Below are positions 49,860-64,000 of a stretch of DNA of 64,000 bases, one piece after another. Location: NCBI GenBank assembly GCA_963817955.1, contig CAWFQK010000003.1, positions 192,001 through 256,000 on the forward strand, in the 5' to 3' direction. How positions within the stretch are numbered: the stretch's first letter is position 1; each line of letters opens with the position of its first letter. The translations under genes and the position numbers were made by a program. The DNA comes from an uncultured Gemmatimonadaceae bacterium (GTDB taxonomy: Bacteria > Gemmatimonadota > Gemmatimonadetes > Gemmatimonadales > Gemmatimonadaceae). The notes beneath the pieces are model-generated. The model was not told where the DNA came from and made no database searches. It saw nothing but the letters and a program-made list of their open reading frames with translations.

Positions 49860-49914
49860 CGTTACACTAGTCGGTCCAGGTGTAACGGCTGGATAATGGT
49901 GTAGCCATTACTAT
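49860..49914 (+). promoter_or_regulatory. Direct-repeat activator motif, copy C, with -10-like TACTAT
   Basis: GTTAC(49861), GTAACGGC(49882), ATAAT(49893), TACTAT(49909); aligns with the copies at 60526 and 60675. Confidence 0.6.
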
Positions 49915-49987
49915 GCGCCCTGTTCCCGTGCCTTCGTCGGGCCTAACGCGGCGATGACGTCGCGAACGTAACATTGAATAGGTGACC

Positions 49988-50668
49988 ATGATGCTGAAGA
50001 CTATGACTCCCGCGCGCCGCCGCGCTGGTTTCACACTGATCGAGACCATCGTCACGGTGGGTCTCATCGCGGTGCTCGCCGCCTTCGTGATTCCATCGGT
50101 CATTCAAAAGGCCGGCGCGGGCGATCCGGTCAAGGTTCAGAACGACCTGAACACGGTTCGGACGGCAATCGAGACCTTCGCCACCGACACCAAGGCAGGA
50201 TTTCCACATCAAATATCGTTGTTGACCTCCAAGCCAGTCGCGGCGACCGATCACCTCATCGACAGCACCCTGATTACCAGCGGACAGGTGTCGCTCTGGA
50301 ACGGTCCATACCTTGGGGCGACGATCTCTTCGACAGTCAAGGACAGCATCGCCACTGGCTATACGGCGTACATCCGCAATTTCATCGACCGCTACGACAT
50401 CGTGAATAATGCCGCGGCTCACGATACGCTGGGTGTAGTCAATGTGGCATTTTCGGCGACGAGCACGCTCTTCGCAGCAATACGCATCGACGGACTGACC
50501 GTCGCGCAGGCAAAGGCGATGAACACGTTGTTCGACGGCGCAAACGACGCGAACCTGGGGGACGGATCGAATACGACCGGCCGGTTCCGCTTCCTCGCTC
50601 CGGCGCTGACGGGTCCTCAAGCCAACCAAGTCGTCGCCTACTATATGGCTGCACCGATCACCCAATAG
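49988..50668 (+). CDS. Prepilin-type (GspG-like) pilin 1
   Basis: RRRAG/FTLIE plus hydrophobic helix; WNGPYL; NTLFDG; several possible starts (49982-50003). Confidence 0.88.
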   Translation: MMLKTMTPARRRAGFTLIETIVTVGLIAVLAAFVIPSVIQKAGAGDPVKVQNDLNTVRTAIETFATDTKAGFPHQISLLTSKPVAATDHLIDSTLITSGQVSLWNGPYLGATISSTVKDSIATGYTAYIRNFIDRYDIVNNAAAHDTLGVVNVAFSATSTLFAAIRIDGLTVAQAKAMNTLFDGANDANLGDGSNTTGRFRFLAPALTGPQANQVVAYYMAAPITQ

Positions 50669-50677
50669 GCGCACACC

Positions 50678-51394
50678 ATGGTCAGCGAGCTGCAGGACAG
50701 CATGGTCGACATGCGCGCGTTGCGCCAGCGGCGTGGCTTTACCCTCATCGAGACGATCGTCACGGTAGGACTGATTTCCGTGATGGCGGCGTTCGTCGTG
50801 CCCTCTGTACTCAAGAAGGCCGATGCCGCAGATCCGGTGAAGGTGGCGACCGATCTGAACTCCATCTCAACGGCTATCCAGTCGTTCGCGTCAGACGTCA
50901 AGGGTGCTTTGCCTGGGGATCTCGAAGATCTCACCGATCCGTTGATGACCAACGGGACGTGCAACACGATCAATCCGTGCGATTCCACGGTTACGCACGT
51001 CAACATCTTCACGGTTGCGCAGGCGGCGCTCTGGCGTGGACCGTACTTGCAGGCGTCGATTGGTCCGAGCCCAGATGCGGCGATTCGTAGCGGATATGTG
51101 GCAGATATCCACAATACCCTGGTGCGCTACGATGCCACGAGCGGGGTGCCAGAGTGGTGTTCCGGCATCGGAACACAGCTCGTCCCTTGCGCTGGATTCA
51201 TCGTGACGAATCCACTGTACGTAGCGGTGCGGGTGGACAGTCTCAATCTTGCCCAGGCGCTGATCGTCAACAACATCATCGACGGACCAAACGAGGCGCA
51301 GCCAGGCTTGCAGGGACGCTTCCGGTTCCCCACGCCAGCGTCGCCAACGGCTTTGGCGACACCGGCTTACTTCCTGGCTACGCCGGTGCCGTAA
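50678..51394 (+). CDS. Prepilin-type (GspG-like) pilin 2
   Basis: QRRG/FTLIE; WRGPYL; two Cys pairs; NNIIDG. Confidence 0.88.
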   Translation: MVSELQDSMVDMRALRQRRGFTLIETIVTVGLISVMAAFVVPSVLKKADAADPVKVATDLNSISTAIQSFASDVKGALPGDLEDLTDPLMTNGTCNTINPCDSTVTHVNIFTVAQAALWRGPYLQASIGPSPDAAIRSGYVADIHNTLVRYDATSGVPEWCSGIGTQLVPCAGFIVTNPLYVAVRVDSLNLAQALIVNNIIDGPNEAQPGLQGRFRFPTPASPTALATPAYFLATPVP

Positions 51395-51480
51395 CAGTGT
51401 TTGCCGAGAATTAAAGATTGCGGGGCCGAGAGCCGATACTCAAATGTTGGTACCCGGCCCCAGTTCGTATCAGGGATACG

Positions 51481-51531
51481 AAAAGTGGCACAAAATGCTC
51501 CTTGCAAGAGTTGACATTTAGTGCCACTCTT
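51481..51531. promoter_or_regulatory. 17-bp inverted repeat overlapping TTGACA upstream of the large lipoprotein gene
   Basis: AAAAGTGGCACAAAATG vs CATTTAGTGCCACTCTT (15/17 match); TTGACA at 51511. Confidence 0.45.
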
Positions 51532-51725
51532 TAGCCTGGTGGGAATGCTTTTGGCACCGATGTAGGTGCAGCACGAAGTTCGATCGCGCGTGGCAACGCT
51601 GGCCGCGCGTTGGGCAAATCAAATTTGTGACATGGATGGCGGCGCGAATCTTGTGTTCGTTGCCGATGTGTTCGCGCTGTTTCGGCACTCTGCCGTGAAG
51701 TATTTCTTTGGACGAGACCTCGACG

Positions 51726-54700
51726 ATGATCTCTCTCCGGTCGTTCGCTTCCTCTACGGTTCTTGCGTGCGCTGCGCTGCTGGTCGCAGGCTGTACGGAC
51801 GGCCCAATGGGCCCCCTGAGCGCAACGCGTCAGGCGGGCAAGGCGAATTTCGACGGGAAGGTCGGTAGCACTGGCAATTCCGCCAAGAACGGCTCGATCG
51901 ACGTGCGCGTGCTGCTCGACAAGAGCGGCGGCGCGGTGCTCGAGATCCGTACCGGCACCTTTGACGACGCCACGAATACCGGAACGCCTAACGGCTACTT
52001 CCAGAATGTTCAGTACAAGGTGTATGACGGGTCAAAGAAGCAGGTGCAGGTAGAGAACGTCAAATTCAAGACCGACGGAACCACCAAATACGTCACGTCG
52101 ATCAACCTCTGCTCCACGAATGAAGATGAGGAGTACGACGACCACAACCACGACCACGACCACGACCACGACCGCGACCACAACCATGAGAATCGCACGC
52201 CGTCGTGCGCAAAGACGTTCGGCGCCGGCTGGACCGTGTCTGTCCAGGCGAATCTCAAGGGCGTCGGCGGCGACGACAAGAAGACCGACGTTGTTCGCGT
52301 CGATGGAACGCCGGTGTATCTCCCCGACGTCGACCTGACCAAACAGGGCATTTACGTTGTTGGCGCCGACGGATCGCAGTCGCCCGCATCGCAGGTGACA
52401 CCTGGCGTGGCAACGACGTACTCCGTCACGATTCCCAACAACAAGCCTGTGCTTGGCTTGCCGAACAGCGTTGGCGTCGTCACGACGTGCGCCGTGTCCG
52501 TCGATGGCATCACGCAATTCGCACTGCCAACGTCAGGTTTCGGCAAAAGCTCCAATCCGAACCTGTTCAGCTATGTCGGCAGCGGCACGCAGACGATCGC
52601 CGGTGGAGCGAGCGCCCCCTGCCAGTTCACGCTGACATTGTCAGCCGGCAAGCACACCGTCAAGGTGACCGCAGTCGTTCTGTATCCCGGCGATTACGAT
52701 AGTTTGAACAACAGCACTCAGGCGATCACCGTCACGGCGGTCTCCGGGTCGCCGGACATCGCGGCCGGCGTGCTGCAGGCCGACATCGGGAACGGACAAG
52801 TACAGACTCTCGACAAGACGATTTACGCGGGTCAGTCGCTCAACCTCGACCAATGGGTGTCGCTCGTCAGCGGCGCTCCGCCGGGAACCGTGACGTGCAC
52901 CCTGACGATCACCAATACCGCCACGAACGCCGTTACGACGGCGAGCGGCTCCGTGGCACTGACGTCGGGCGATGCCAAGGCTTGCGCGATTCCGTACAGC
53001 TTTGCAGCGGCAGGCACGTACTCGGTGACCAGCGTCGTCATGCCCCCGTCCGGCGTGACCGATCCAGTCCTTGCCAACAATACCGCGACGAATACGGTCA
53101 CGGTGAGCGTGGCTGTCGCATCGGCGAATGTCGTCGTCAGCAGCCTCGCGTTCACGGACGCCGCGGTGAACGCGACGACGCAAGTATTCTCGCCGTCATC
53201 AAATCCAGCGGCAGACACCATTCATTCTGGCGACGTCGTCACGTACGCGGCGACGGTCAGCGCGAGCAACTTCCTGAACGCCACGTCGGTCCCGTCAGTC
53301 ACCTGCACGGCAACGGACAACGGAACCGACATCACCAAGTCCGTTACGTGGATCAAGCAGGCGGTGGCGAGCTTGGGGACGAGCGCCCAATCGTGCAGCT
53401 TCCAGTACACGATCACCGAGAGCGACGTGAATTCGTCGCACCCGCATACGATCGGCGTGTCGGTCTCGACCGGGAATTTCACCAATACCGCGACGACCAA
53501 CGCGACCGGCACGGGAACGGTCACGATTCCGGCGGTTTCCCCGCAGGCTGCGGTCGTCGTAAGCCAGCTGTCGTTCACGGATGCAGCCGAGCACATCACG
53601 TCGCGCGCCTTCTCGCCCACCGCCGATCCAACGGCGGATACCGTACACTCGGGTGACGTGGCCAGGTACGAGGCAACGATCAGCGCCACGGGCTTCCGAA
53701 ATGCTACGGCCGTGCCGGTGACGTGTTCTGCAACGGTGGATGGAGTGAGCGTCACGTCCGGTTGGGTTACGCAGACGATCAGTCTTGGTACGACGCCGCA
53801 AGTGTGCAGCTTTACGCGCGCGATCACTGAGACTGACAATCTGATGCACCCGCACAACATCCAGTTCTTCGTCACGACCGGCACGTTCGTGAACACGGCG
53901 AAACCGGCAGATACGAGCCGGCTCGGTGTGATCAATGACTACCGACGCGTGGATGTTTCGGTGGGCGCGCTTCAGTTGCTCAATGCGAGCGGCAACCCGA
54001 TCGATCTTTCAAAGAACGGTGTGCAGCAAGGCGCGACGGTAACGTTGCAGGTTCCGATCACGAATCTCGATCCGACGACGGCAACGTCGGTGAACTGCGG
54101 TATCCTCTCGAACGACACCGGCGCCCCTATTACCACATTCGCGTTGCCGTCTGCGGACATCGTGGCGAGCTCGCTCAGGCCGGTGACGCTCACCACCACC
54201 GCCATCACTCTGGCGGCGAATGGCACCGGCGTATGCCAGTACAGCGTTACGGCACCGACCGACCAAGGCCTGATTTCAATCCCGCTGGTTGCGTTGGTGA
54301 CGTCCACGACGGATAGTCCGCCCGATCCCGATCCCCGGAACAACGCATCGTTCGGTAGCCTGACCGTCGTCAGCAGCGGCGCGTTCACGAATGTGGCCGG
54401 CGGCGTCTTCAGCCTGGCGCAGGAGTGGACAAATCCGTTCACCCCGGCGTCTGATTGGCCGGTGGTTGGCACGCTCGACAACCAGAACTTTAAGGCGTCT
54501 CAGCTCTCACTGCTGGTCGTGCCGACGAAAAATATTCTGGGAACGTTCGCGCTGAGCGGAACAGTGATTAGTGGCCCAGCCACTGCACCCGTCACGTTCG
54601 GCACCGGGACGCTTCCGGCGGCCGAGCTTCGTGCTTCGACCGGACCGGGCGATACGCCGTGCATCACCATCGGACCGTTGGCTCCGCTCGGCAACGCCGG

Positions 54701-55019
54701 CGAGCCAGAAATCAAGTATTTCGCACAGGTCTGCGCGACGCAGGCGCCTCAGGACGGTTTCCAGGCGATCTTTGTGAACTACTCCCAGTCGATGCAAGGG
54801 CCGCTGGCGCCGACTCCGACCACCCTGTTCTTCACGAATTCGGTTGTGATGAAGATCCGGCTTGATTTCACGCTTACAGGCAGCACCATTGCGGATAAGG
54901 TCACCGCTACTATTACCGTGCCGGTGATTACGCTAGCCGATAATTGCGGCCCCAACCAGGGTGGGACCGCAAATGCATGTTCGACCACCTTCGGAGCCCC
55001 CACGGTTTCGACCCCGTAA
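51726..55019 (+). CDS. Large Thr/Ser-rich lipoprotein with ~5 Ig/CARDB-like repeats (putative adhesin)
   Basis: Lipobox LVAGC; repeated TC...C.F beta-sandwich units, several ending in D...NN; His-Asp loop. Confidence 0.75.
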   Translation: MISLRSFASSTVLACAALLVAGCTDGPMGPLSATRQAGKANFDGKVGSTGNSAKNGSIDVRVLLDKSGGAVLEIRTGTFDDATNTGTPNGYFQNVQYKVYDGSKKQVQVENVKFKTDGTTKYVTSINLCSTNEDEEYDDHNHDHDHDHDRDHNHENRTPSCAKTFGAGWTVSVQANLKGVGGDDKKTDVVRVDGTPVYLPDVDLTKQGIYVVGADGSQSPASQVTPGVATTYSVTIPNNKPVLGLPNSVGVVTTCAVSVDGITQFALPTSGFGKSSNPNLFSYVGSGTQTIAGGASAPCQFTLTLSAGKHTVKVTAVVLYPGDYDSLNNSTQAITVTAVSGSPDIAAGVLQADIGNGQVQTLDKTIYAGQSLNLDQWVSLVSGAPPGTVTCTLTITNTATNAVTTASGSVALTSGDAKACAIPYSFAAAGTYSVTSVVMPPSGVTDPVLANNTATNTVTVSVAVASANVVVSSLAFTDAAVNATTQVFSPSSNPAADTIHSGDVVTYAATVSASNFLNATSVPSVTCTATDNGTDITKSVTWIKQAVASLGTSAQSCSFQYTITESDVNSSHPHTIGVSVSTGNFTNTATTNATGTGTVTIPAVSPQAAVVVSQLSFTDAAEHITSRAFSPTADPTADTVHSGDVARYEATISATGFRNATAVPVTCSATVDGVSVTSGWVTQTISLGTTPQVCSFTRAITETDNLMHPHNIQFFVTTGTFVNTAKPADTSRLGVINDYRRVDVSVGALQLLNASGNPIDLSKNGVQQGATVTLQVPITNLDPTTATSVNCGILSNDTGAPITTFALPSADIVASSLRPVTLTTTAITLAANGTGVCQYSVTAPTDQGLISIPLVALVTSTTDSPPDPDPRNNASFGSLTVVSSGAFTNVAGGVFSLAQEWTNPFTPASDWPVVGTLDNQNFKASQLSLLVVPTKNILGTFALSGTVISGPATAPVTFGTGTLPAAELRASTGPGDTPCITIGPLAPLGNAGEPEIKYFAQVCATQAPQDGFQAIFVNYSQSMQGPLAPTPTTLFFTNSVVMKIRLDFTLTGSTIADKVTATITVPVITLADNCGPNQGGTANACSTTFGAPTVSTP

Positions 55020-55038
55020 GCTGCGCCGCGCACTTCGT

Positions 55039-55079
55039 AACGCGCCATCGACTCGGATCGTCTGAGTGATGGCGCGTTT
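55039..55079 (+). terminator. Stem-loop after the lipoprotein gene
   Basis: AACGCGCCATC/GATGGCGCGTT and ACTCGGA/TCTGAGT arms; only a short T run. Confidence 0.5.
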
Positions 55080-55104
55080 CGCGTTCCGTACCCGCGTGTA
55101 CATC

Positions 55105-55732
55105 ATGAAGCGTTCTCATCGACTTGGTCGCGGCTTCACCCTGATGGAGGTTGCTGTCGCCGCCGCCATCTTGGCGATGCTTGCCGCGGTAACGTCTCCG
55201 TACCTCGTTGAGTTCATCGACAAGCAGCAGGCCCAAACGACCGCAGACAAGCTCGCGGCGCTCGCCGCAGGCGTGGCTGCCTTCGAGAACAATGTGCACT
55301 CCGGCGCCGCCGCCACGGCTCTGACGTATCCTGGACGCATTGGCGAACTGGCAAACGCCATCACTGCCTCGAACGCGTCATACCGTAATAGTTGTGGGGT
55401 TAACTTCAACGCGACTGCCGTCACGGGCTGGAATAGCTTTGGCCCATTCGTAACGTTCTACGTCGACAGCACCAACGGCTACAGCACGCCGCTTGGCATG
55501 GTGAGTGATGCAATGGTCCGCAATCCGACCACCGCGAACGGCAGCAGCACGGGCGCCGGCACGTTGGCCCTTCGCATGATTGCGATCGACTCTTCCGATG
55601 CCGTCGATCTCGATCTCATCGTTGACGGTGGCGATGGCGGTGCCTCAGGTGTCCTCCGCTACACCATCGGCACGACGACGGCACATATGGCCGACGTGTC
55701 GTATTTCATTCCGGTCGCGGACCAAGTGCTGA
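55105..55732 (+). CDS. Prepilin-type pilin 3 (fused in frame to pilin 4 as given; probable true end ...ADKC* at 55732)
   Basis: LGRG/FTLME; DLIVDG; AAG TGC TGA in the +1 frame at 55724-55732. Confidence 0.75.
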
Positions 55733-56295
55733 AACGCCGCCGCGCACAACAGGGCTTTACGCTCGCCGAAGTGCTCGTGGCCTTCGTGTTGATTGGCGTG
55801 CTCGCGGCCGTCATCGTTCCCACCGTTCGCGGCCGGCTGCAGTCGGGCTACGAGAGCGCCATCATCTCGGAATTCACCAACCTGTCGTCCGCCATCACCG
55901 CGTATCGTCAGGACGTCGGCAAATACCCACCCAGTCTCGATTATCTGTCGGCTCTCCGGACGCCGACGCCGTTAGATCGGTGCGGCATCGCGCTCAGCGC
56001 GAATGCGATTGCCTCGTGGCGCGGACCCTATACCACGCGCACCATTCCGATCGTCGGTGGCGGCGGCGGCTACATGTTCGCGTCAAAGGACACCATCGCC
56101 GATCTCATGTCAGTGAGCACCGCGCCAGTCGGCTTTTCGATCACGCTCAAGGGCCCCGACACGCTCACCGCTCACAACGTCGATCTTCAAGTGGATGGCG
56201 TCGCCAACGCGACCGCCGGCAATCTGCAGTGGACGGTCAACGGGGCGGACGTCTGGATCAACTACATCATTGCCACAAAATCCGGAGCCTGTTGA
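55726..56295 (+). CDS. Prepilin-type (GspG-like) pilin 4
   Basis: GTG start, KRRRAQQG/FTLAE; D.GKYP; WRGPY; DLQVDG; ends in Cys. Confidence 0.82.
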   Translation: MLKRRRAQQGFTLAEVLVAFVLIGVLAAVIVPTVRGRLQSGYESAIISEFTNLSSAITAYRQDVGKYPPSLDYLSALRTPTPLDRCGIALSANAIASWRGPYTTRTIPIVGGGGGYMFASKDTIADLMSVSTAPVGFSITLKGPDTLTAHNVDLQVDGVANATAGNLQWTVNGADVWINYIIATKSGAC

Positions 56296-56298
56296 TCC

Positions 56299-59200
56299 TC
56301 AGCGCCGGACGGCGCGCCCCGGAAGCTCTACCAGCAAGTCCGAAAGCGCGACAGTGCTTCCCGTAGCTCGCCCGCCAAGCCACAATTGCGCGGGCGTTGC
56401 CATTTCATCGCCAAGAAACTTGAGTGAAGAACGCCAGCGCACCTGACCATCCACTGAGAACGTCACGACTTGGTCGCCTCCGATCGTGATCTCGACCGTG
56501 TGGCTGTCGGCTGGACGGAACAGAGATACGGGCTCCGACGAAGTCTGCTGGCCCACCGAGTACATGAGAACGCCAGCCGCGCCGTCCCAGCTCACTGCGG
56601 CCATGGGCGCAAATCGCGGCGCCGCCCGATCGATCGCCGTCACATCGGCCAGCGGCACGAGTGCCATTGTTGCCGTGGCCGCCGACGGACGCCCGCTGAA
56701 TGGCGCAAACAGACGGGCGCGCACGTGCAGTCCGGAACGCAACTCGAGGCCTGGACGCAAGAGAACGCCGCTTTCCCATTCCATGTCGCCGTTCGGATAG
56801 ACCGCCCGCTTCGCCGAGCCGGCGATGACGCCCACGTACGGGAGTGGTGCGCCGAGCGGCAGCCACTGCGCACTCACGGTGCTGCCTATGAATTCATCGG
56901 TGATGTGAAGCCGCTCCGTCGATGTCACCGCGAGCGTGAGTGTGTCGGCGCGCCAACCAGGAAGCAATGCGACGACACGAACGTTGCCTACGGCGCGCCC
57001 GACGACTTTCAATCCGGCGGTGTTTCCCGTCCCCGGCGCCGAGTCGCTCAATGCAATTATGCCTGGGTCGAGCACCTTCCAGTCAGCAATCGTTCCGCTG
57101 ACGAGCGCTCCCGCAACGGAAACGGTGAATGCGGTCAGCCGCACCGTATCTCCCACGCCGAGCGCTGCGCTGCCGAGGACCCGGACGCGGTCGATGTACA
57201 CGCGCGCGGCCCCATCCCACCGTGCGATGCCGAACTGCCGGCCCGGCGGCGTGACACGGCGGGGTGATCCACCGAGCGTCGGCCGAACGTAGATCCCCAG
57301 ATCGCCATCTCGCACCGACTGGAATGCGAGCATGCGGCCATCGGGCGAGAACACCGCACCATCGTCGCCATTCCGATCGGAGACGGGCCACAGTCGCGCA
57401 TTGTCGAAATCGTATACGTAAAGACGCGGTCCGCCATTCCGTGTGCTCGTGAACACGAGCATCGAACCATCCGGCGACCAATTGATGTTGTAGTCATCAG
57501 CTGGATTAGCACTCAGGTTTCGTTGCTCCGAACCATCCGGTCTGCTGACGAACACGTCGCGCTGCCTCCCGGAGGTGGAGCGGGCCACCCACGCCACCCA
57601 TAAACCTGTCGGCGACCAGCGTGCTTCCGTCACGGTACGCGATGCAGACGTGTCGATTGGAACGAGCACATTGCGTTGGTCAATCGACGCGCGAAACAGA
57701 TCGGTGTCGAAGCTCCCGTCGTCGAGCGTGCGCGACCGGGACACCAGCAGCGACCTGCTGTCCGGCGACCAGGCGAGTGCCGTATTGTCTCCGGGGCCTG
57801 CCGCTATGATCAGTGTGTCATGCCGATCGGCGGACAAGACATACACCTCCCGTCCGCGAGTGGTAACCCGCTCGAGCGCGACGCGTTGGCGATCGGGAGC
57901 GACGATTGGTGCGAGCCAGGGTGCGCCGAGCGAATCAATCCATTGCAGCCCGGCGGCGTTCGTCGGAATCGGGACGAGCACACTGGCTCCCCGAAGCGCC
58001 CCAACGTCGGCGCGCAACTGATTCTGTCCGCGCGCGTCGCGCTCCGACACGATCAAGGTATCAGCCACGCTGCCCGCGGCCATTCGCGTGGTGACGGCGC
58101 GGCGAAAAGCCATACCGGCGAGGAACACGACGATCGAAATCGCGATTGCGCGAGCCCATTGCGCCCGAGTGGCCCTTTTCCGGACGGCGAAGGGAATGTG
58201 CGCGGTGGCGGACGTCGACGGCTCCGCTGTCTGCGCTGGCAAGTCGAGTGGCTCGACCACAACGTCAGGTTCGCTCGCCTCGACGGTCTCGACCGCCGGC
58301 GCCGCAGCCGCCTCCTCAGGCGACGGCAGGGCGAGTCGGCCGCCTCCAAACGCGACCAGCAGAGCGTCAATGTCCTGGCGTGCCGCGGCGTTCGGCGCAA
58401 AGGTCAGCGCGATGCCGAGTAGGCGCACGACCTCTGGAGAAGCTCCCATTGATGCCGCGGTGAACGCAGCCTTTCGTGCATGCGCGAACGCCTCGCGCGA
58501 TCTGCCGGCAACAGCGTAGAGCGCCGCGAGCTCAGAGTCGGTGCAATCCGGCTCTGCCGCGAGGGCATCCCCTGCCCACCCTGCGAGCAATGCTCGTCCC
58601 GCCAGTCCGCTGCCGTCCACGAGAAAAGACGTCGTCGAGTCGTGCGACACGACGTAACCATCGGATATCGCGCGCAGCAGTCCGACGCGCGTCAGGTCCT
58701 CCACGGCGTCAAAGGTCGCGCTCTCCGGAAGATGCGCCGCGGCAGCGAGCAAACGCAGCGAGGCGGTACGCTCAAAGAGAGACGCAGCAAAAAACACGCG
58801 TCGCTGTGAAGGCGACGCGCCTTGAAGTCGCGCCCACAACATGTCGCGCATCGATGCAGGAAGATCACTGGCTCCCTGACCAGCCGCCGCGCGCCGCGCC
58901 AGCTCGATGGCCGTGACCGGAACGCCCCGCGAAGCGTGGGCAATCCGCTCGACGTCAACCGCCGTGCGCGTTGCCTCTGGAAGCTGCTCGCGCACGAGCG
59001 TCGTCGTCTCGTCATGGGACAGCGGACCAAGCTCGATCCGGGTGTCGGGGCTCTGTTCATCGACCGTCGCCAGCTCGCGCAACCGTTCGATGGTTTGCTG
59101 TGCGCTTCGATCGGGACTGTAGGCGACGACAAATAGAATGGGCGAGTCGTGCAGACGGTGCGACAGATACGTCAACAGGTCGAGCGTCGAGCTGGATGCA

Positions 59201-60462
59201 TGCTGAGCGTCGTCGAGTAGCACGCAGAGCGGACGTTCGTACGCGGCGGCGTCGGTCAGCGCAGCGATGCCCTCGAAGAAGCGAATACGTCCGGCCTCGT
59301 CCTCCACTGCCGGCGCGTTCGGCAAATCGAACGAGTCTCGGAGCTCCGGCAGGAGCCGCGCGGCCTCCGCGAGCAAGTGCCGGCTTGCACCAGATATCCC
59401 CGACGCACGCACCAAGGGCCGGAGTGCTTCAGCGATGCTTGCATAGGGAAGGGCGCCCCCGGTCGTGGCCTCGTGGCCGCGAAGGACCTGCACTCCGCCA
59501 AGGCTGCGCACCCGATCGGCAAATTCGTCGAATAGGCGCGACTTGCCCATGCCCGGATCGCCCTCTACGAGAACCGTAGCTCCCTTTTCGGATCGCAGGC
59601 GCGTGAGCCGCGCGAGCATGCGTGAGATTTCGGATTCCCGTCCCACGAACGTGGCGACCTTGCGACCGTTGGCGGCGACTTCCGCCTGGGCGCGTGGCGT
59701 GTCTTTAGGGTTCCGCCGCTCGAGCCGCTCGATGATGGCGCGGATATTCGACGGAACCGGAAGGTCCAGCTCTTCCTTCAGGCGGGCCGCGTAGGCCTTG
59801 GCAGCTGCGAGCGCGTTGGCATGGCGTCCCGCAGTGACGAGCGTATTGACCTGAAAGACGGCCGCTTCCCCGTCGAATGGCGCCATGGTCGTGAGCCGCT
59901 CGGCGAGCTGGATGGCGTCGCGAATCCGGCCCGAAGCGACTGCCTGTTCACCGGCCGCAAGGAGGGCTTCCTCGAAATGCGACCGAAGACGCACTCGCTC
60001 GGCGTCTGCCCAGCGGTCGAAAGCCGACTCTCCCACCTCAAACGCCTCGAGGAATTCGCCGCCGTATGCGGCGATGGCGTCGTCCCACCGCCCGTCCTCG
60101 AACGCAGCAACAAAGACGTCGCGATCGGTGGCAAGTCCACAGTTTGGTGCAATGGCGACGTCGTCACGGTGTTGCGGGAGCACCTCGTCGCCCAATGCGG
60201 TGCGCAGGCGGTGGAGAGACTGGCGGAAGGCGTTGCGTGCCTTTTCTTCCGGGATCTCGCCCCAGAGAATGCTGATCAGCTCGTCGCGCCGGGATCGGCC
60301 GCGTACCGCGATGTATGCCAGCATTGCCAGAGACTTGCCTGGACCGAGTCCGGGCAGCGCCCGTCCGTCCTGCGCGGCGATGGCGGGCGAGCCGAGAAGC
60401 CGCAAGGAGTAGCGGGGTGGCTCGTTGGATGGTGGGTCTTGCGGCTGGATTGGCGGCGTCAC
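56299..60462 (-). CDS. SARP/BTAD transcriptional activator fused to AAA (STAND) ATPase, TM helix, PD40 beta-propeller, Ig-like and lectin-like domains
   Basis: LRLLG..RDELISILW..RQSLHRLR; W...ER BTAD; FVGRE, GDPGMGKS, LDDAQ; TM AIAISIVVFLAGMAF; WSPD repeats. Confidence 0.85.
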   Translation of the reverse strand: MTPPIQPQDPPSNEPPRYSLRLLGSPAIAAQDGRALPGLGPGKSLAMLAYIAVRGRSRRDELISILWGEIPEEKARNAFRQSLHRLRTALGDEVLPQHRDDVAIAPNCGLATDRDVFVAAFEDGRWDDAIAAYGGEFLEAFEVGESAFDRWADAERVRLRSHFEEALLAAGEQAVASGRIRDAIQLAERLTTMAPFDGEAAVFQVNTLVTAGRHANALAAAKAYAARLKEELDLPVPSNIRAIIERLERRNPKDTPRAQAEVAANGRKVATFVGRESEISRMLARLTRLRSEKGATVLVEGDPGMGKSRLFDEFADRVRSLGGVQVLRGHEATTGGALPYASIAEALRPLVRASGISGASRHLLAEAARLLPELRDSFDLPNAPAVEDEAGRIRFFEGIAALTDAAAYERPLCVLLDDAQHASSSTLDLLTYLSHRLHDSPILFVVAYSPDRSAQQTIERLRELATVDEQSPDTRIELGPLSHDETTTLVREQLPEATRTAVDVERIAHASRGVPVTAIELARRAAAGQGASDLPASMRDMLWARLQGASPSQRRVFFAASLFERTASLRLLAAAAHLPESATFDAVEDLTRVGLLRAISDGYVVSHDSTTSFLVDGSGLAGRALLAGWAGDALAAEPDCTDSELAALYAVAGRSREAFAHARKAAFTAASMGASPEVVRLLGIALTFAPNAAARQDIDALLVAFGGGRLALPSPEEAAAAPAVETVEASEPDVVVEPLDLPAQTAEPSTSATAHIPFAVRKRATRAQWARAIAISIVVFLAGMAFRRAVTTRMAAGSVADTLIVSERDARGQNQLRADVGALRGASVLVPIPTNAAGLQWIDSLGAPWLAPIVAPDRQRVALERVTTRGREVYVLSADRHDTLIIAAGPGDNTALAWSPDSRSLLVSRSRTLDDGSFDTDLFRASIDQRNVLVPIDTSASRTVTEARWSPTGLWVAWVARSTSGRQRDVFVSRPDGSEQRNLSANPADDYNINWSPDGSMLVFTSTRNGGPRLYVYDFDNARLWPVSDRNGDDGAVFSPDGRMLAFQSVRDGDLGIYVRPTLGGSPRRVTPPGRQFGIARWDGAARVYIDRVRVLGSAALGVGDTVRLTAFTVSVAGALVSGTIADWKVLDPGIIALSDSAPGTGNTAGLKVVGRAVGNVRVVALLPGWRADTLTLAVTSTERLHITDEFIGSTVSAQWLPLGAPLPYVGVIAGSAKRAVYPNGDMEWESGVLLRPGLELRSGLHVRARLFAPFSGRPSAATATMALVPLADVTAIDRAAPRFAPMAAVSWDGAAGVLMYSVGQQTSSEPVSLFRPADSHTVEITIGGDQVVTFSVDGQVRWRSSLKFLGDEMATPAQLWLGGRATGSTVALSDLLVELPGRAVRR

Positions 60463-60525
60463 GCGTCAGTTGATGAAGACTAGACGTAAAGTCGTAAACG
60501 AAACCACAACAGCATCTTGCGAGGC

Positions 60526-60579
60526 CGTAACACGCGAAAGGACAGGAGTAACGGCCAGCTAACGGTCGGGGGCGATAAT
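60526..60579 (+). promoter_or_regulatory. Direct-repeat activator motif, copy A, with -10-like GATAAT
   Basis: GTAAC(60527), GTAACGGC(60548), CTAAC(60559), GATAAT(60574). Confidence 0.65.
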
Positions 60580-60674
60580 ACCAGCGTATGCAGCAAACTG
60601 AAGCACGTACAGCAGGGGTGGACGGCAGATTCGGATGGCCCAAGTCTATGGTTTAGACGGCTATTTGCCACCTC

Positions 60675-60728
60675 CGTAACACGGCAGCCGTGAGCAGTAA
60701 CGGCGGCGTAACCCTGCACTCGTATGTT
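60675..60728 (+). promoter_or_regulatory. Direct-repeat activator motif, copy B, with -10-like TATGTT
   Basis: GTAAC(60676), GTAACGGC(60697), GTAAC(60708), TATGTT(60723). Confidence 0.65.
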
Positions 60729-60772
60729 CGTCTTTGTTGGATGGCAGTACTGAACAGTGACTGGGAAGGAAG

Positions 60773-61362
60773 ATGAACCTTCGACGCAGAAGCACGAGAC
60801 GGAAGACCGGATTTACCCTGCCGGAAATCATCGTCACCATCTCGCTGATCGCGGCACTCGCGGCGGTTGTGGTGCCGACGGTGATCAGTCAGGTGAAGAA
60901 GGGAGATCCATCTCGTATCGGGAATGATTTCCTCGCCGTGCGCGGCGCGTCGGAGCAGTTCCTGACCGACATACGGAAATACCCGAGTTCGATGTATCAA
61001 CTCACGAACGTCATCACGACGTCGCAAACGGGGCTCGTGGGTACGTCGATCGCGAACTATGGGCAGGCCGAAGTGAACCGCTGGCGCGGGCCGTATCTGA
61101 ATAAGGACAGCGCGGCCGCACGCATCACCGGCTACGGGCTGACAGATGAACATCAACTTCGATACGGTGTCGCTGGCTTCGAGCGGCGCTGCGAGCGCGG
61201 CGGGACAGAAGTATATGGTCATTGCGATTCCGATGACCGACTCGCTCTGCTGCTCTCGAGGTGGACCGCCAGTTCGACGACGGCGTGTTACTGACCGGTG
61301 CAATCCGGTATTTGAAAGGGGCGACAGACACGCTGAAATTTTTATTGATGCCTATTTACTGA
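60773..61362 (+). CDS. Prepilin-type pilin 5, interrupted by two +1 frameshifts (~61144, ~61248)
   Basis: RRKTG/FTLPE; WRGPYL; the reconstructed tail ALEVDRQFDDG...LKFLLMPIY* matches its paralogs. Confidence 0.75.
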
Positions 61363-61441
61363 GCCGATTGCGGCTCTGATGGACTTTTCGATTCCCCGCA
61401 GCAGGCAGTTCGTTCCCTACTCGACCCTTAGGAGAAGACAG

Positions 61442-62033
61442 ATGAAGAAGAACGTTCGTCGCGGCTTTACGCTGCCTGAGATCTTGGTGACGGTGACGGT
61501 AGTGGCGGTGCTCGCCGCCGTGGTCGTGCCGGCGGTGACGCAGTATGTGAGCAAGGGCGACGTCGCCAGCGACCCTGTCGGACATCCAGCAGGTACGCAA
61601 TGCGATTACGGCCTATATTGCGGATACACGTGTTAATCCCCACGTACTTTTACGATCTGACGTCGACCAGTAATGGCGTCACGGGGTACAAGGGTTCGTA
61701 TCTGGCCGCCACGCTTACTGGGGTAACTGGGGCGGGCACGTTCACGAGCGCGGGACTCGGAATCAAATTTGGTCCGAGTCTGGACGCTGATTAATACCAC
61801 CGGGGTACTTGACTACTTCGCTCAAGTTCCCGGATAACACTAAGTGCTCAGTTCTCTTCGCCCTGGACCAGGCGATTGATGGCGCCGGTGGCGTCACCTC
61901 CTCGGCGACGTCAGGGACCACGGCAACCACCGGTTCCCTCGTCTGGAGTGCCACCAATACCTGTAACACCAATCCAAACGGCACGATAACCGGCACTGAT
62001 GTCACGCTCAAACTTGTGGCGATCGGAACCTGA
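61442..62033 (+). CDS. Prepilin-type pilin 6, interrupted by 3-4 frameshifts (~61568, ~61641, 61783-61805)
   Basis: AGGAG RBS; VRRG/FTLPE; YKGSYL; tail C..LFALDQAIDG...C. Confidence 0.72.
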
Positions 62034-62107: not shown

Positions 62108-63815
62108 CTACTTGCCAATAATGATATGTCCAATCGCCATGATCCGTATTGGAAGGTGCTGACGCTCCAACTCAGGTTTTGTGACTACATGCACCGAGAC
62201 ATGTCGCGCTTTCATTGAGTCCACGAAGTTCCGCGGCAGCTGGTCCGCATTGAAGATCTTCGGCACGTCGCGCAAGAACGGATCGTTTCGCAGTAGCTGG
62301 CGTCCCCACATCACCTGATCTGACGGAAATACGACGGCGTCTGCCCGCAGCGACGCCATCCACTCGTAGCCGCGCCGGTACGGTCCAACGATGCGCTCGA
62401 CGCCATTTGCGCGCAGCGGGATCTGCGCCACGATCGTGATACCGACCGAGGCCAACACCAGTCTGGCGGCACGACGCCAGCCAACCGCGCGCGCCAGCAA
62501 CTCGGCGCCGATAGCGGCCAACAACGCCAGGTTGCCGAGCCCATCATACATGTATCTGTAGCCCCAACCCTCGCCTTGCAAAGGGCTAAGAAAGGTCCGT
62601 GCGATTACGATGAATAGCAGTGACGCAGCAGCATCGCGTGAAAACGTGTCGAGCCGCCGCCACCGGATTATCGCCGCCACAGCGAGAATCGTCACGATCA
62701 ATCCATTCCAGCTCGGGAATAAGTGCGAGGTCCATGGCTGAAGTCAAACGGACTTCGGCAGCCGGGATCGAAAACAGGTGAGCCGCGACGCCGGCCGTCG
62801 CGCTGGGAGACGCAAAGGTCGATGAACCTGGCGACGAGAGTCCCTGCATGTACCCATACCAGTACGAAAGCCCCAACAGGTACACGGCAGCGACGTATCC
62901 GAACACCGCGAACCGCTTGTCGCGCAAATACCGCAGGATAAAGACCGCCGCAAACAGACCATGCGGAAACGGACTGTGGACGCCAAGCGCAATCACGCCG
63001 ACCCATGGCAGCAATAGCAGGCTGGTGCGCCGGTTGTCGACGTACAACCAGAGCCAGACGAGCGACACGAGCAGGTGTGTCGGCATCGAGAAGAAGGTCA
63101 TCGACATGAACATGACCTGCGTCGATGTCGCGAAGAACAGCGCCGCCAAGTAGGCGCGCGCCGGCCGATCGGGCCACACCTTTCTCGCGATCGATGCCAC
63201 GAGGCAAAGCGATAGTGCCGCAATGACGGGTCCACCGAGCCGTCCAACGCCAGCGGCAATGAACGGCGCGTTGATGAGCGAGTGGAGCGGCAAGAAGCCC
63301 AATCGCCAGGTACAATCGGCTCCGGCAACGATCGACGTCGGCGTCAATGCGTTGATGTAAGGGCACCACGCTGCGGGAACCGTCGCAAAGGCGCGCCCCC
63401 GCGCGAATATCTGCGCTTGAAACCATGCCGAATACTCGTCATCGGCCAGCAGGTATCCGTGAAACACGAGCCGGATGCCCGCGTACACGACAACCAGCAA
63501 CGCGAGGGCGAGCAGGGCGATTCGCCACTGCTTGAATTCCCACTGTGGCACATCTCGCGGTATGTCGCTGTCGCCCGCTGCGGTCCTCAGAGTGAGCAGC
63601 ACCACGGCGGCAAAGGCCGCGACCAACAGCAATGCGGGCGCCTCTATCTTCACATACTGCTCAAAGAAGAGGCTGTACATCGTGTATTGCACGTTGTCGA
63701 CGACAGGGATGGCGAGAAGCCCTGCGCCTATAATGCCGAGCGTGCCGAAGCATGCCAGTCGAATAGCCGCGCGAGCAGACGGAACGTCCATCTGATCGCT
63801 GATTGGGACGGGCAT
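62108..63815 (-). CDS. Polytopic membrane glycosyltransferase (GT-C/ArnT-like), one frameshift at ~62716
   Basis: Many TM segments; ADDEYSAWFQAQIF acidic loop; GWGYRY; removing one base of the GGG at 62715-17 joins the two ORFs; GGAGG RBS. Confidence 0.65.
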
Positions 63816-63846
63816 GTCTGGTCCTCCGGCGAGTGGATACGCGGCG

Positions 63847-64000
63847 CTACGGTTTCACGCGCGCATTGACGATCAATTCCGCCACCCCGCGCCCAACGCC
63901 GAACCGCTTCATGATCGCGTCCGCCGAGAGCGAGTCCACATTCACCGGCAATTGATAGAACACCACTGCCGGCACGCTTGGCACCTTGCTCGCCGAGTTG
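63847..64000 (-). CDS. 3' end of a gene with a helix-hairpin-helix-like tail (partial)
   Basis: LPVNVDSLSADAIMKRFGVGRGVAELIVNARE resembles a ComEA-type HhH; the stop position assumes another +1 frameshift. Confidence 0.35.
   Translation of the reverse strand, partial: NSASKVPSVPAVVFYQLPVNVDSLSADAIMKRFGVGRGVAELIVNARVKP

Follow-up and report, generated by a model that had tools for sequence, protein, structure and literature searches.

The intergenic region between a divergent regulator gene and pilin 5 of an uncultured Gemmatimonadaceae bacterium contains two tandem modules, each made of three TAAC repeats and a -10-like hexamer. These repeats are very probably conserved docking sites of the neighbouring SARP regulator, which would replace the -35 element and activate the pilin genes. 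The sequence, its conservation, the register of the cores, their co-loss with the regulator and the SARP fold of its N-terminus were established computationally, and it is binding, activation, start sites, topology and signal that we infer. The window, i.e. the whole stretch of DNA analysed, comprises 64,000 nucleotides; the coordinates of its relevant features are given in Table 1.

By their usual description, SARPs activate antibiotic genes of actinomycetes. Here pilin genes are linked to the complete AfsR promoter geometry, with natural gains and losses serving as controls, both in Gemmatimonadota and, as a separate case, in Betaproteobacteria. While the promoter design is a known SARP design, three aspects are new, namely the proposed regulon of pilus genes, the putative membrane-spanning sensor and a covariation between residues and bases. 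With a named regulator, three predicted promoters and exact bases, the locus makes pilus control testable in a soil phylum that is abundant but hardly cultured. Neither SARP boxes in Gemmatimonadota nor SARP-controlled MSHA-type pili nor a SARP recognition code were the subject of a paper in the literature searched, most subscription papers and supplements lying outside the search.

Table 1. Positions of the regulator, pilin genes and putative promoter elements in the window
Feature	Position	Strand	Details
Third putative promoter, before first pilin	49862..49914	+	TTAC 49862, TAAC 49883, TAAT 49894, hexamer TACTAT 49909
Extra two-repeat site	49944..49974	+	TAAC 49944, TGAC 49955, TAACAT 49969; this genome only
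Left operon	49982..56295	+	Two pilins, 1103-aa protein without Pfam match, two further pilin frames
1387-aa regulator	56299..60462	-	SARP domain, AAA_16 NTPase, hydrophobic stretch, TolB-like beta-propeller, beta-rich domains
Degenerate extra half-sites 5' of copy A	60495..60512	+	TAAAC, CAACAG; from ortholog columns and alignment
Copy A, putative promoter/operator	60525..60579	+	TAAC cores 60528, 60549, 60560; 5-mers GTAAC 60527, GTAAC 60548, CTAAC 60559; -10 hexamer GATAAT 60574-60579
Copy B, putative promoter/operator	60674..60732	+	TAAC cores 60677, 60698, 60709; 5-mers GTAAC 60676, 60697, 60708; TATGTT 60723-60728, then CGTC
Pilin 5	60773..61363	+	Type IV prepilin motif; frameshifted here; two frames, against intact G009 ortholog
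Pilin 6	61442..62033	+	Frameshifted in this assembly; duplicated in G009
Convergent MSHA-type assembly operon, end	62586..64000	-	Continues beyond window

Triple-repeat modules upstream of pilin 5

The initial annotation had described two tandem copies of a triple GTAAC repeat, with 21- and then 11-bp spacing, at a fixed distance from a -10-like hexamer, and both copies were recovered as described. They share the grammar TAAC-17-TAAC-7-TAAC-10-hexamer (core-to-core spacings of 21 and 11), with the first base of the hexamer 15 nt beyond that of the third 5-mer, which is 10 nt past the TAAC core. The copies are 149 nt apart and their spacers are indeed unrelated, save for the bases flanking the cores. 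The repeat is present, but not strictly as GTAAC: the third repeat of copy A is CTAAC, the G preceding repeat 2 is found in 11 of 26 modules and that preceding repeat 3 in 16 of 26, and judged from these sequences the conserved core is TAAC(G), the leading G being variable. The proximal pair is 11 bp apart in 26/26 modules (by selection). The distal repeat lies 21 bp further up, i.e. 32 bp from the last one; 21 is one base off the canonical 22, a deviation that counts against the SARP reading, and 32 also occurs in TCAC-type paralogs.

The exact pattern TAAC-N17-TAAC-N7-TAAC occurs twice in the whole 4,533,955-base genome, both times at this locus, against a genome-wide expectation of 0.001 from the TAAC frequency of the genome. 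In the genome scan that had been proposed as a check, a weight matrix made from 24 orthologous modules, copies A and B left out, ranked the two sites top with 44.4 and 41.1 bits. The next site (15.8 bits) precedes the first pilin. As to a wider regulon in this genome, the genome scans gave nothing above 16.4 bits outside copies A and B. A single GTAAC with a -10 showed no genome-wide excess.

A generic sigma-70 promoter scan found no -35/-10 pair at the modules, as is expected where repeats replace the -35 element; this result and the AfsR register of the cores agree with the original proposal that the repeats stand in for a -35. With the hexamer counted as -12 to -7, the cores of copy A are predicted at -58, -37 and -26. 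Application of the AfsR/afsS geometry gives predicted start sites at 60586 (copy A) and 60735 (copy B), the latter 38 nt 5' of the pilin ATG.

The extra half-sites 5' of copy A, where orthologs have TAAC at -34 and TGACAG at -22 relative to the first core, may coincide in part with the leftward promoter of the regulator gene. As they approach its start, the neighbour could be thought to bind the repeats but mainly to repress the pilins or itself. The accessible part of a study on the Geobacter SARP GSU1771 reports repression of pgcA, pulF and relA, with pilA affected both ways (PMC10599522). Such a repressor is nevertheless highly improbable here. The lack of a -35 element favours activation over repression, and a 10-nt gap to a hexamer with A2 and T6, found in 11/11 right-hand and 7/7 left-hand modules, is the activator geometry of afsS. 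A leftward -10 at equal gap on the minus strand (GATGCT here) was dropped from consideration, as it is without conservation in orthologs. TAGTCT (60477-60482, minus strand), approximately 15 nt before the start codon, is a possible -10 of the regulator gene and is not clearly conserved.

The divergent regulator

The SARP domain of the regulator (residues ~15-255) consists of an OmpR-type winged helix and a BTAD. Pfam models matched BTAD (42.9 bits, cut-off 22.1), AAA_16 (84.9 bits) and PD40, and there was no match to Trans_reg_C. A profile search gave EmbR (1e-17) and AfsR (5e-17), and the best PDB matches of a model covering the first 250 residues (pLDDT 95) were the AfsR SARP and EmbR (Foldseek, TM 0.67-0.73; for AfsR SARP 8k60, E 1.3e-10 and TM 0.71-0.73).

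W74, E76, R87, R92 and R94 of AfsR correspond to W67, E69, R80, R85 and R87 of the regulator in a gapless alignment, and further equivalences in the helix (regulator/AfsR) are N77/A84, Q81/T88 and H84/S91. Of the residues by which AfsR contacts DNA, W74, R87, R92 and R94 are kept, while T88 is replaced by Q81, S91 by H84 and K95 by T. Among those contacting RNAP, E68, E76, L243, E246 and L247 are kept and V249 is replaced by L; D71 has become S64 and R240 has become A. The replaced residues count against the SARP reading. The recognition helix, ARNAFRQ[SA]LHRLR, is identical in 8/8 orthologs despite an N-terminal identity of 49-61%.

The NTPase belongs to family AAA_16, not NB-ARC, and its Walker A motif (residue 301) is present in 7/7 proteins read. 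There is one hydrophobic stretch (~772-790), whose hydropathy score is only 1.5-2.5 in 5/6 orthologs, a point against a membrane segment. The C-terminus comprises a PD40/TolB-like propeller and beta-rich domains in place of a soluble TPR sensor. The C-terminal half would lie outside the membrane and sense a signal; as its model (pTM 0.48) is reliable for little more than the propeller, no ligand is named.

Proposed promoter architecture and known systems

In the proposed mechanism two SARP protomers would occupy the neighbouring TAAC cores at -37 and -26, take the place of the -35 and bring sigma-70 holoenzyme to the -10 hexamer, like AfsR at afsS, with a third protomer two turns further up at -58. 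The regulator would activate pilin genes from three promoters (two tandem ones to the right and one to the left), leaving the assembly genes outside its control. The NTPase domain probably keeps the SARP domain off until it is released, probably by a signal sensed outside the membrane via the propeller or beta-rich domains.

For AfsR, the available text of PMC10936776 shows a pair of adjacent SARP protomers that cover 11-bp repeats between -40 and -19; the last of these repeats is 8 bp from the -10, and sigma region 4 is kept away from the DNA. In that of PMC11301090, AfsR reads -37T, -36C and -35A. The cores here present T-A-A at -37 and -26, i.e. T-x-A in the register of AfsR. This register, the SARP fold of the divergent gene product and the joint presence and absence of repeats and regulator gene (see below) favour the SARP-type activation that had been suggested for these promoters.

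AfsR/afsS of Streptomyces coelicolor (8HVR, 8K60) shares with this locus the SARP fold, an NTPase after the SARP domain, 11-bp repeats in place of a -35, a T-x-A core at -37/-26, a poor -10, the W74/E76/R87/R92/R94 set and the LxxEL motif. Its core, however, is TCAG/TTAT (TAAC here), the third repeat 21 bp up is a feature of the present locus, and a putative membrane segment and TolB-like propeller take the place of the TPR sensor. The predicted targets here are pilins, not antibiotic regulators, and the host is a member of the Gemmatimonadaceae.

Activators of the ToxR/CadC type are membrane-bound, one-component winged-helix proteins with an outside sensor, and ToxR/TcpP control a pilus regulon. 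In contrast to these, the present regulator has a BTAD and an NTPase between the DNA-binding domain and the putative membrane segment, and the predicted target is an MSHA-type pilus. This probable membrane-spanning SARP-NTPase layout raises the question of how an outside signal would reach an intracellular NTPase switch.

The three-heptamer sites of DnrI, ActII-ORF4, VlmI and FdmR1, as given in the accessible part of PMC10972967, likewise have three repeats, a 4-nt heptamer spacer and a cluster-situated regulator; the same source gives 10-bp units for the SARP-LAL PimR. The modules here differ in having a distal spacer of 14 nt (21-bp period), a core of 4-5 nt and two tandem promoters. GSU1771 of Geobacter sulfurreducens is a non-actinomycete SARP that influences pilA and binds promoters directly (PMC10599522, PMC12325454), but it is a receiver-SARP global regulator, partly a repressor, and the available portions of these papers define neither a repeat box with -35 replacement nor binding at pilA. 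Two further sources, each available in part, bear on distribution: a survey considered proteobacterial and other non-actinobacterial SARP hits doubtful (PMC7040171), and a 2026 preprint placed AfsR-like regulators in Actinomycetota (10.64898/2026.09.02.748808).

Conservation of the modules and co-loss with the regulator

A regulator ortholog was present in 7 of 24 sampled genomes of the genus, with 49-61% identity over the first 301 residues; non-orthologous matches had ≤ 39% identity among the matches listed. The triple repeat was kept at 21/11 spacing and at the same place in 7/7 of these genomes, so the motif is conserved in orthologous intergenic regions, one of the points on which the initial annotation had staked its proposal. 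Eleven modules were collected with a search pattern asking only for three TAAC, not for a hexamer. In these, hexamer position 2 was A and position 6 was T in 11/11, CG before the first core and G after the second were likewise found in 11/11, and the spacer columns were saturated across orthologs, with cores and A2/T6 invariant.

A local duplication, or a chance pattern without function, would account for the resemblance of copies A and B (74% identity over 31 nt), and many two-repeat TAAC matches elsewhere are chance. However, invariant cores and A2/T6 amid saturated spacers, together with an expectation of 0.001 per genome, make this explanation scarcely conceivable.

Copy A is present in 7/7 orthologs. 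Copy B, which was also found in metagenome loci, is complete in 2/7 genome orthologs, decayed in 4/7 and absent from 1/7. Across the genus (31/31 genomes surveyed) the exact module with a -10 occurred in eight genomes, and the regulator ortholog in the same eight; the sole other match among the 31 has one mismatch and adjoins a different BTAD gene. An MshL-like secretin was found in 11 genomes of the genus. In G002 and G016 pilins and secretin are retained, but the pilins are adjacent, the regulator gene having gone from between them; no repeat pair was found in the 400 nt upstream, and the regulator was not found in either genome. The co-loss evidence in the genus consists of these two incomplete genomes (79% and 69%), with the gap within one contig and a further genome, G775, not judged, and the relatives compared in the conservation and co-loss counts are not independent.

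Family-wide, the exact triple was found in 8/301 genomes; of four matches outside the genus, three look like chance and one lies by a BTAD gene. Among all species genomes the strict pattern gave 31 loci, made up of six known orthologs, one betaproteobacterial locus and 24 that are unrelated or unexplained. A strict metagenome scan gave 68 loci, 15 of which precede a pilin (14 by script and L338 by eye). The regulator is visible in ten of these 15, four have < 200 nt upstream and two duplicate genome loci; in L316 the module lies between two pilins with no regulator within the 900 nt in view. The other 53 metagenome loci are unrelated or unexplained, and a protein-seeded metagenome scan gave no matches. 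The same module occurs in six public Gemmatimonadaceae/Gemmatimonadetes records. Alphaproteobacterial matches to the strict pattern (L198, L199, L201, L352 and L356) contain TTAA-N7-(C/T)TAA, which we take to resemble a CtrA box.

Possible other factors at the repeats

Decay of copy B bears on whether this copy might (also) serve an ECF sigma factor, the promoter being GTAAC-N16/17-CGTC and the third repeat its -35. The ECF-like element persists in the four orthologs with a decayed B triple. Modules with TAACC as third core have a preceding G in 9/9 and CGT[CT] right after the hexamer in 6/9, compared with 1/17 of the others. GTAAC-N16-CGTC was also seen upstream of 1/23 sigma genes in this genome, and the accessible text of PMC6180224 lists ECF promoters that contain GTAAC or CGTC. 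In spite of this, an ECF promoter is an unlikely explanation: GTAAC-N16/17-CGT has no genome-wide excess, TCGTC may be just the start region of copy B, and copy A, the left promoter and the two upstream repeats would be left unexplained. Docking of the SARP regulator, the preferred explanation, is compatible with an ECF promoter at copy B, and the two can coexist.

The initial annotation, whose repeats at copies A and B were confirmed, had overlooked the main rival, a PhoB-like protein of the OmpR family. On this reading a response regulator of the PhoB/OmpR family, not the neighbour, would be the main factor at the repeats. PhoB/SphR pho boxes share with the modules an OmpR-type winged helix and 11-bp repeats 10 bp upstream of the -10, as in E. 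coli; the cyanobacterial core is TTAACC and the Synechocystis box CTTAACCT (PMC1906773, available portion). An afs box common to PhoP and AfsR is mentioned in the accessible part of PMC10972967. In this order, GTTAC-N6-GTTAC, the reverse reading of the repeat, precedes genes for polyphosphate kinase (three), phosphate porin (two) and an ABC permease, and in this genome GTAAC-N6-GTAAC lies between two divergent pstS-like genes (G000:C4:212984). All three cores of copy B have a preceding G.

PhoB and SphR, however, are two-component, global regulators without BTAD, and their boxes in this order face the opposite way and keep GTTAC: phosphate genes are on the GTTAC strand and pilins on the opposite, TAAC one. 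GTTAC requires a G that is present at only 11/26 second and 16/26 third repeats. Furthermore, the module was lost along with the SARP gene, and this genome has no further copy of the full module. A PhoB-type protein as main factor is therefore very unlikely, while a secondary role for it is possible, most of all at copy B, in competition with the SARP like that of PhoP with AfsR at afsS (PMC10972967). The pstS-like site and the ppk, porin and permease sites (L173, L180, L184-L188) suggest that the pho box of the order is GTTAC-N6-GTTAC.

A third putative promoter and the pilus genes

Also overlooked at first was a third putative promoter (49862-49974), before the first pilin, which is the third-ranked site in both genome scans. 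Its gap from core to hexamer is 11 nt here and 10 in orthologs, where TTAC-17-TAAC-7-TAAT-10-(TAnnnT) was found in 7/7, TAnnnT not being part of the search pattern. G016, which has no regulator, has the first pilin and lacks the left site. The additional two-repeat site at 49944 was not seen in five orthologs read.

The left operon is syntenic among the orthologs read, and no TAAC site was found before its 1103-aa gene (51708-55019). The product of this gene is beta-rich, has a His/Asp-rich insert and no Pfam match, and is 42-46% identical over ~600 aa in orthologs; it is a candidate for the pilus tip adhesin. A single 409-aa frame with two prepilin motifs (55066-56295) corresponds to two genes in several orthologs.

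The repeats lie between the regulator and pilin 5 as originally placed, with the qualification that pilins 5 and 6 are both frameshifted in this assembly. A membrane-protein gene (62108-63815) is also split, being one ~577-aa frame in orthologs, and all of these look like an assembly error.

The convergent assembly operon encodes an MshEN-bearing PilB/GspE ATPase, PilC/GspF, a PilM-like protein, an MshL-like secretin, an ExeA-like ATPase and a TPR protein. Its synteny is kept in the relatives read, and no TAAC site was found upstream of it. The MshEN domain scored above cut-off, the best secretin model was MshL (208.7 bits, below the cut-off of 250), and GspE and PilB models were below cut-off. 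By these matches the locus appears to encode an MSHA-like type IV pilus, and a type II secretion role is possible for the assembly locus.

Some paralogs share the geometry and vary in the core

The paralog sample comprised 147 loci among the 150 matches listed (135 more matches lie beyond these), L035 and three paralogs of this genome; 150/151 were aligned. A 5-mer repeated exactly after 11 bp and followed 10 nt later by an A2/T6 hexamer was found on the divergent strand at 24/142 loci (8 orthologs left out), compared with 5 on the other strand and 0 in shuffles. Other repeat periods gave no comparable peak, except for multiples of the helical turn. Rule-based callers recognised sites at 36/142 loci (controls 8 and 0-4) and at 40/141 (controls 3 and 0-4); approximately 70% of paralogs are without a callable site, which counts against the SARP reading.

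Cores of the paralogs vary (TCAC, TGAC/TGAT/TGAG, CGAT, TTAC and TAAC). Over 24-26 lineages, clustered at 50-60% (45% merged unlike proteins), position 77 of the regulator was the best predictor of the second base of the core (permutation p 0.0005, ~0.03 after 66 tests). His goes with G in 8/8, Asn with A in 2/3 and Val/Trp with C in 3/3, Ala and Gly being mixed. At position 81, Gln goes with T as first base in 15/15 (p 0.001-0.003).

As a forward test, two-repeat TAAC sites were sought in 401 genomes of the order (150 of 223 matches listed) and 70 were read, 30 of them fetched automatically and 40 chosen with neighbours unseen; one half of these 40 followed the order of the list and the other was picked by eye for a good -10. 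A divergent BTAD gene was present at 16/70 sites, with Asn at position 77 in 13/16. The remaining 54/70 have no divergent BTAD gene, which again counts against the SARP reading, and a reversed-pattern control gave a similar number of matches. When L035 and L372 were included, Asn was present in 8/10 lineages, which were grouped by eye and one of which was already known, compared with 8/97 distinct unselected helices (Fisher p 1.5e-6). Among the 18 Gemmatimonadales regulators selected by way of TAAC, three carry Ile, Leu or Gly at position 77, all with His at 84. In a quick tree, which includes the helix columns and has nine labels set by eye, Asn/TAAC regulators are scattered among His/TGA and TCAC ones. 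The covariation of core and residue looks like a partial code, from which SARP specificity becomes testable by single substitutions. A universal Asn-for-A code was rejected in view of these three regulators and of Ala at this position in betaproteobacterial TAAC readers (see below).

Taken jointly, these results permit a broader reading that we put forward tentatively, as somewhat short of an even chance. SARP activation would be a general, modular promoter language beyond actinomycetes. Gemmatimonadota would have dozens of one-component SARP paralogs, some membrane-spanning, reading private T-x-A-x repeats set largely by position 77 (His-G, Asn-A, small or hydrophobic residues mostly C) and position 81 (Gln-T), and MSHA-type pili in two distant phyla would be under TAAC-reading SARP-NTPases. 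If so, targets could be predicted from protein sequence, orthogonal activator-promoter pairs could be selected, and type IV pili would be subject to an unrecognised mode of control.

Some further sites were seen. For two other SARP-like genes of this genome (G000:C4:1605752 and G000:C2 near 168950), divergent sites with cores AAAC and TGAG were seen, as would be expected if each regulator had a private box. At L010, L012, L019 and L025, TCAC-type sites precede tandem genes for ~48-aa peptides with an ELEERIAP-like ending, resembling RiPP precursors. Genomes of genus g3 (G026, G032, G034, G338, G364 and G366) have 5-17 matches each to a TAAC pair with hexamer, compared with 0 for the reversed control, and the excess may reflect either a larger regulon or a repeat. 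TAAC pairs also precede secreted or lipoprotein genes with no BTAD in view (L225, L226, L227, L229, L231, L255 and L256); a trans-acting SARP may have its targets at such sites.

A betaproteobacterial parallel

The one betaproteobacterial match to the strict pattern, in an uncultured Hydrogenophaga sp., lies 70 nt 5' of a pilin heading an MSHA-like operon, with two SARP-NTPase-TPR genes upstream of the pilin operon. This pilin was found in 9/201 genomes of the betaproteobacterial family. A regulator homolog lies directly upstream at 5/9 pilin loci, and a TAAC/AAAC pair, 11 bp apart and 10 nt before TAnnnT, was present in 5/5 of these; at the 4/9 loci with no regulator homolog no pair was found in 400 nt (0/4). 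The SARP N-terminus was seen in G570, G701, G600 and G667, and is cut by the contig end in G618. These regulators have TPR and no hydrophobic stretch, and their helix, RANLR[VL][VL]LAD, has Ala at position 77, which breaks the Asn rule. At L190, L263-L269 and L298-L302 the MSHA-like operon lies behind one or two SARP-cyclase-like-NTPase-TPR genes. In G570 the regulator gene(s) directly follow rpoN.
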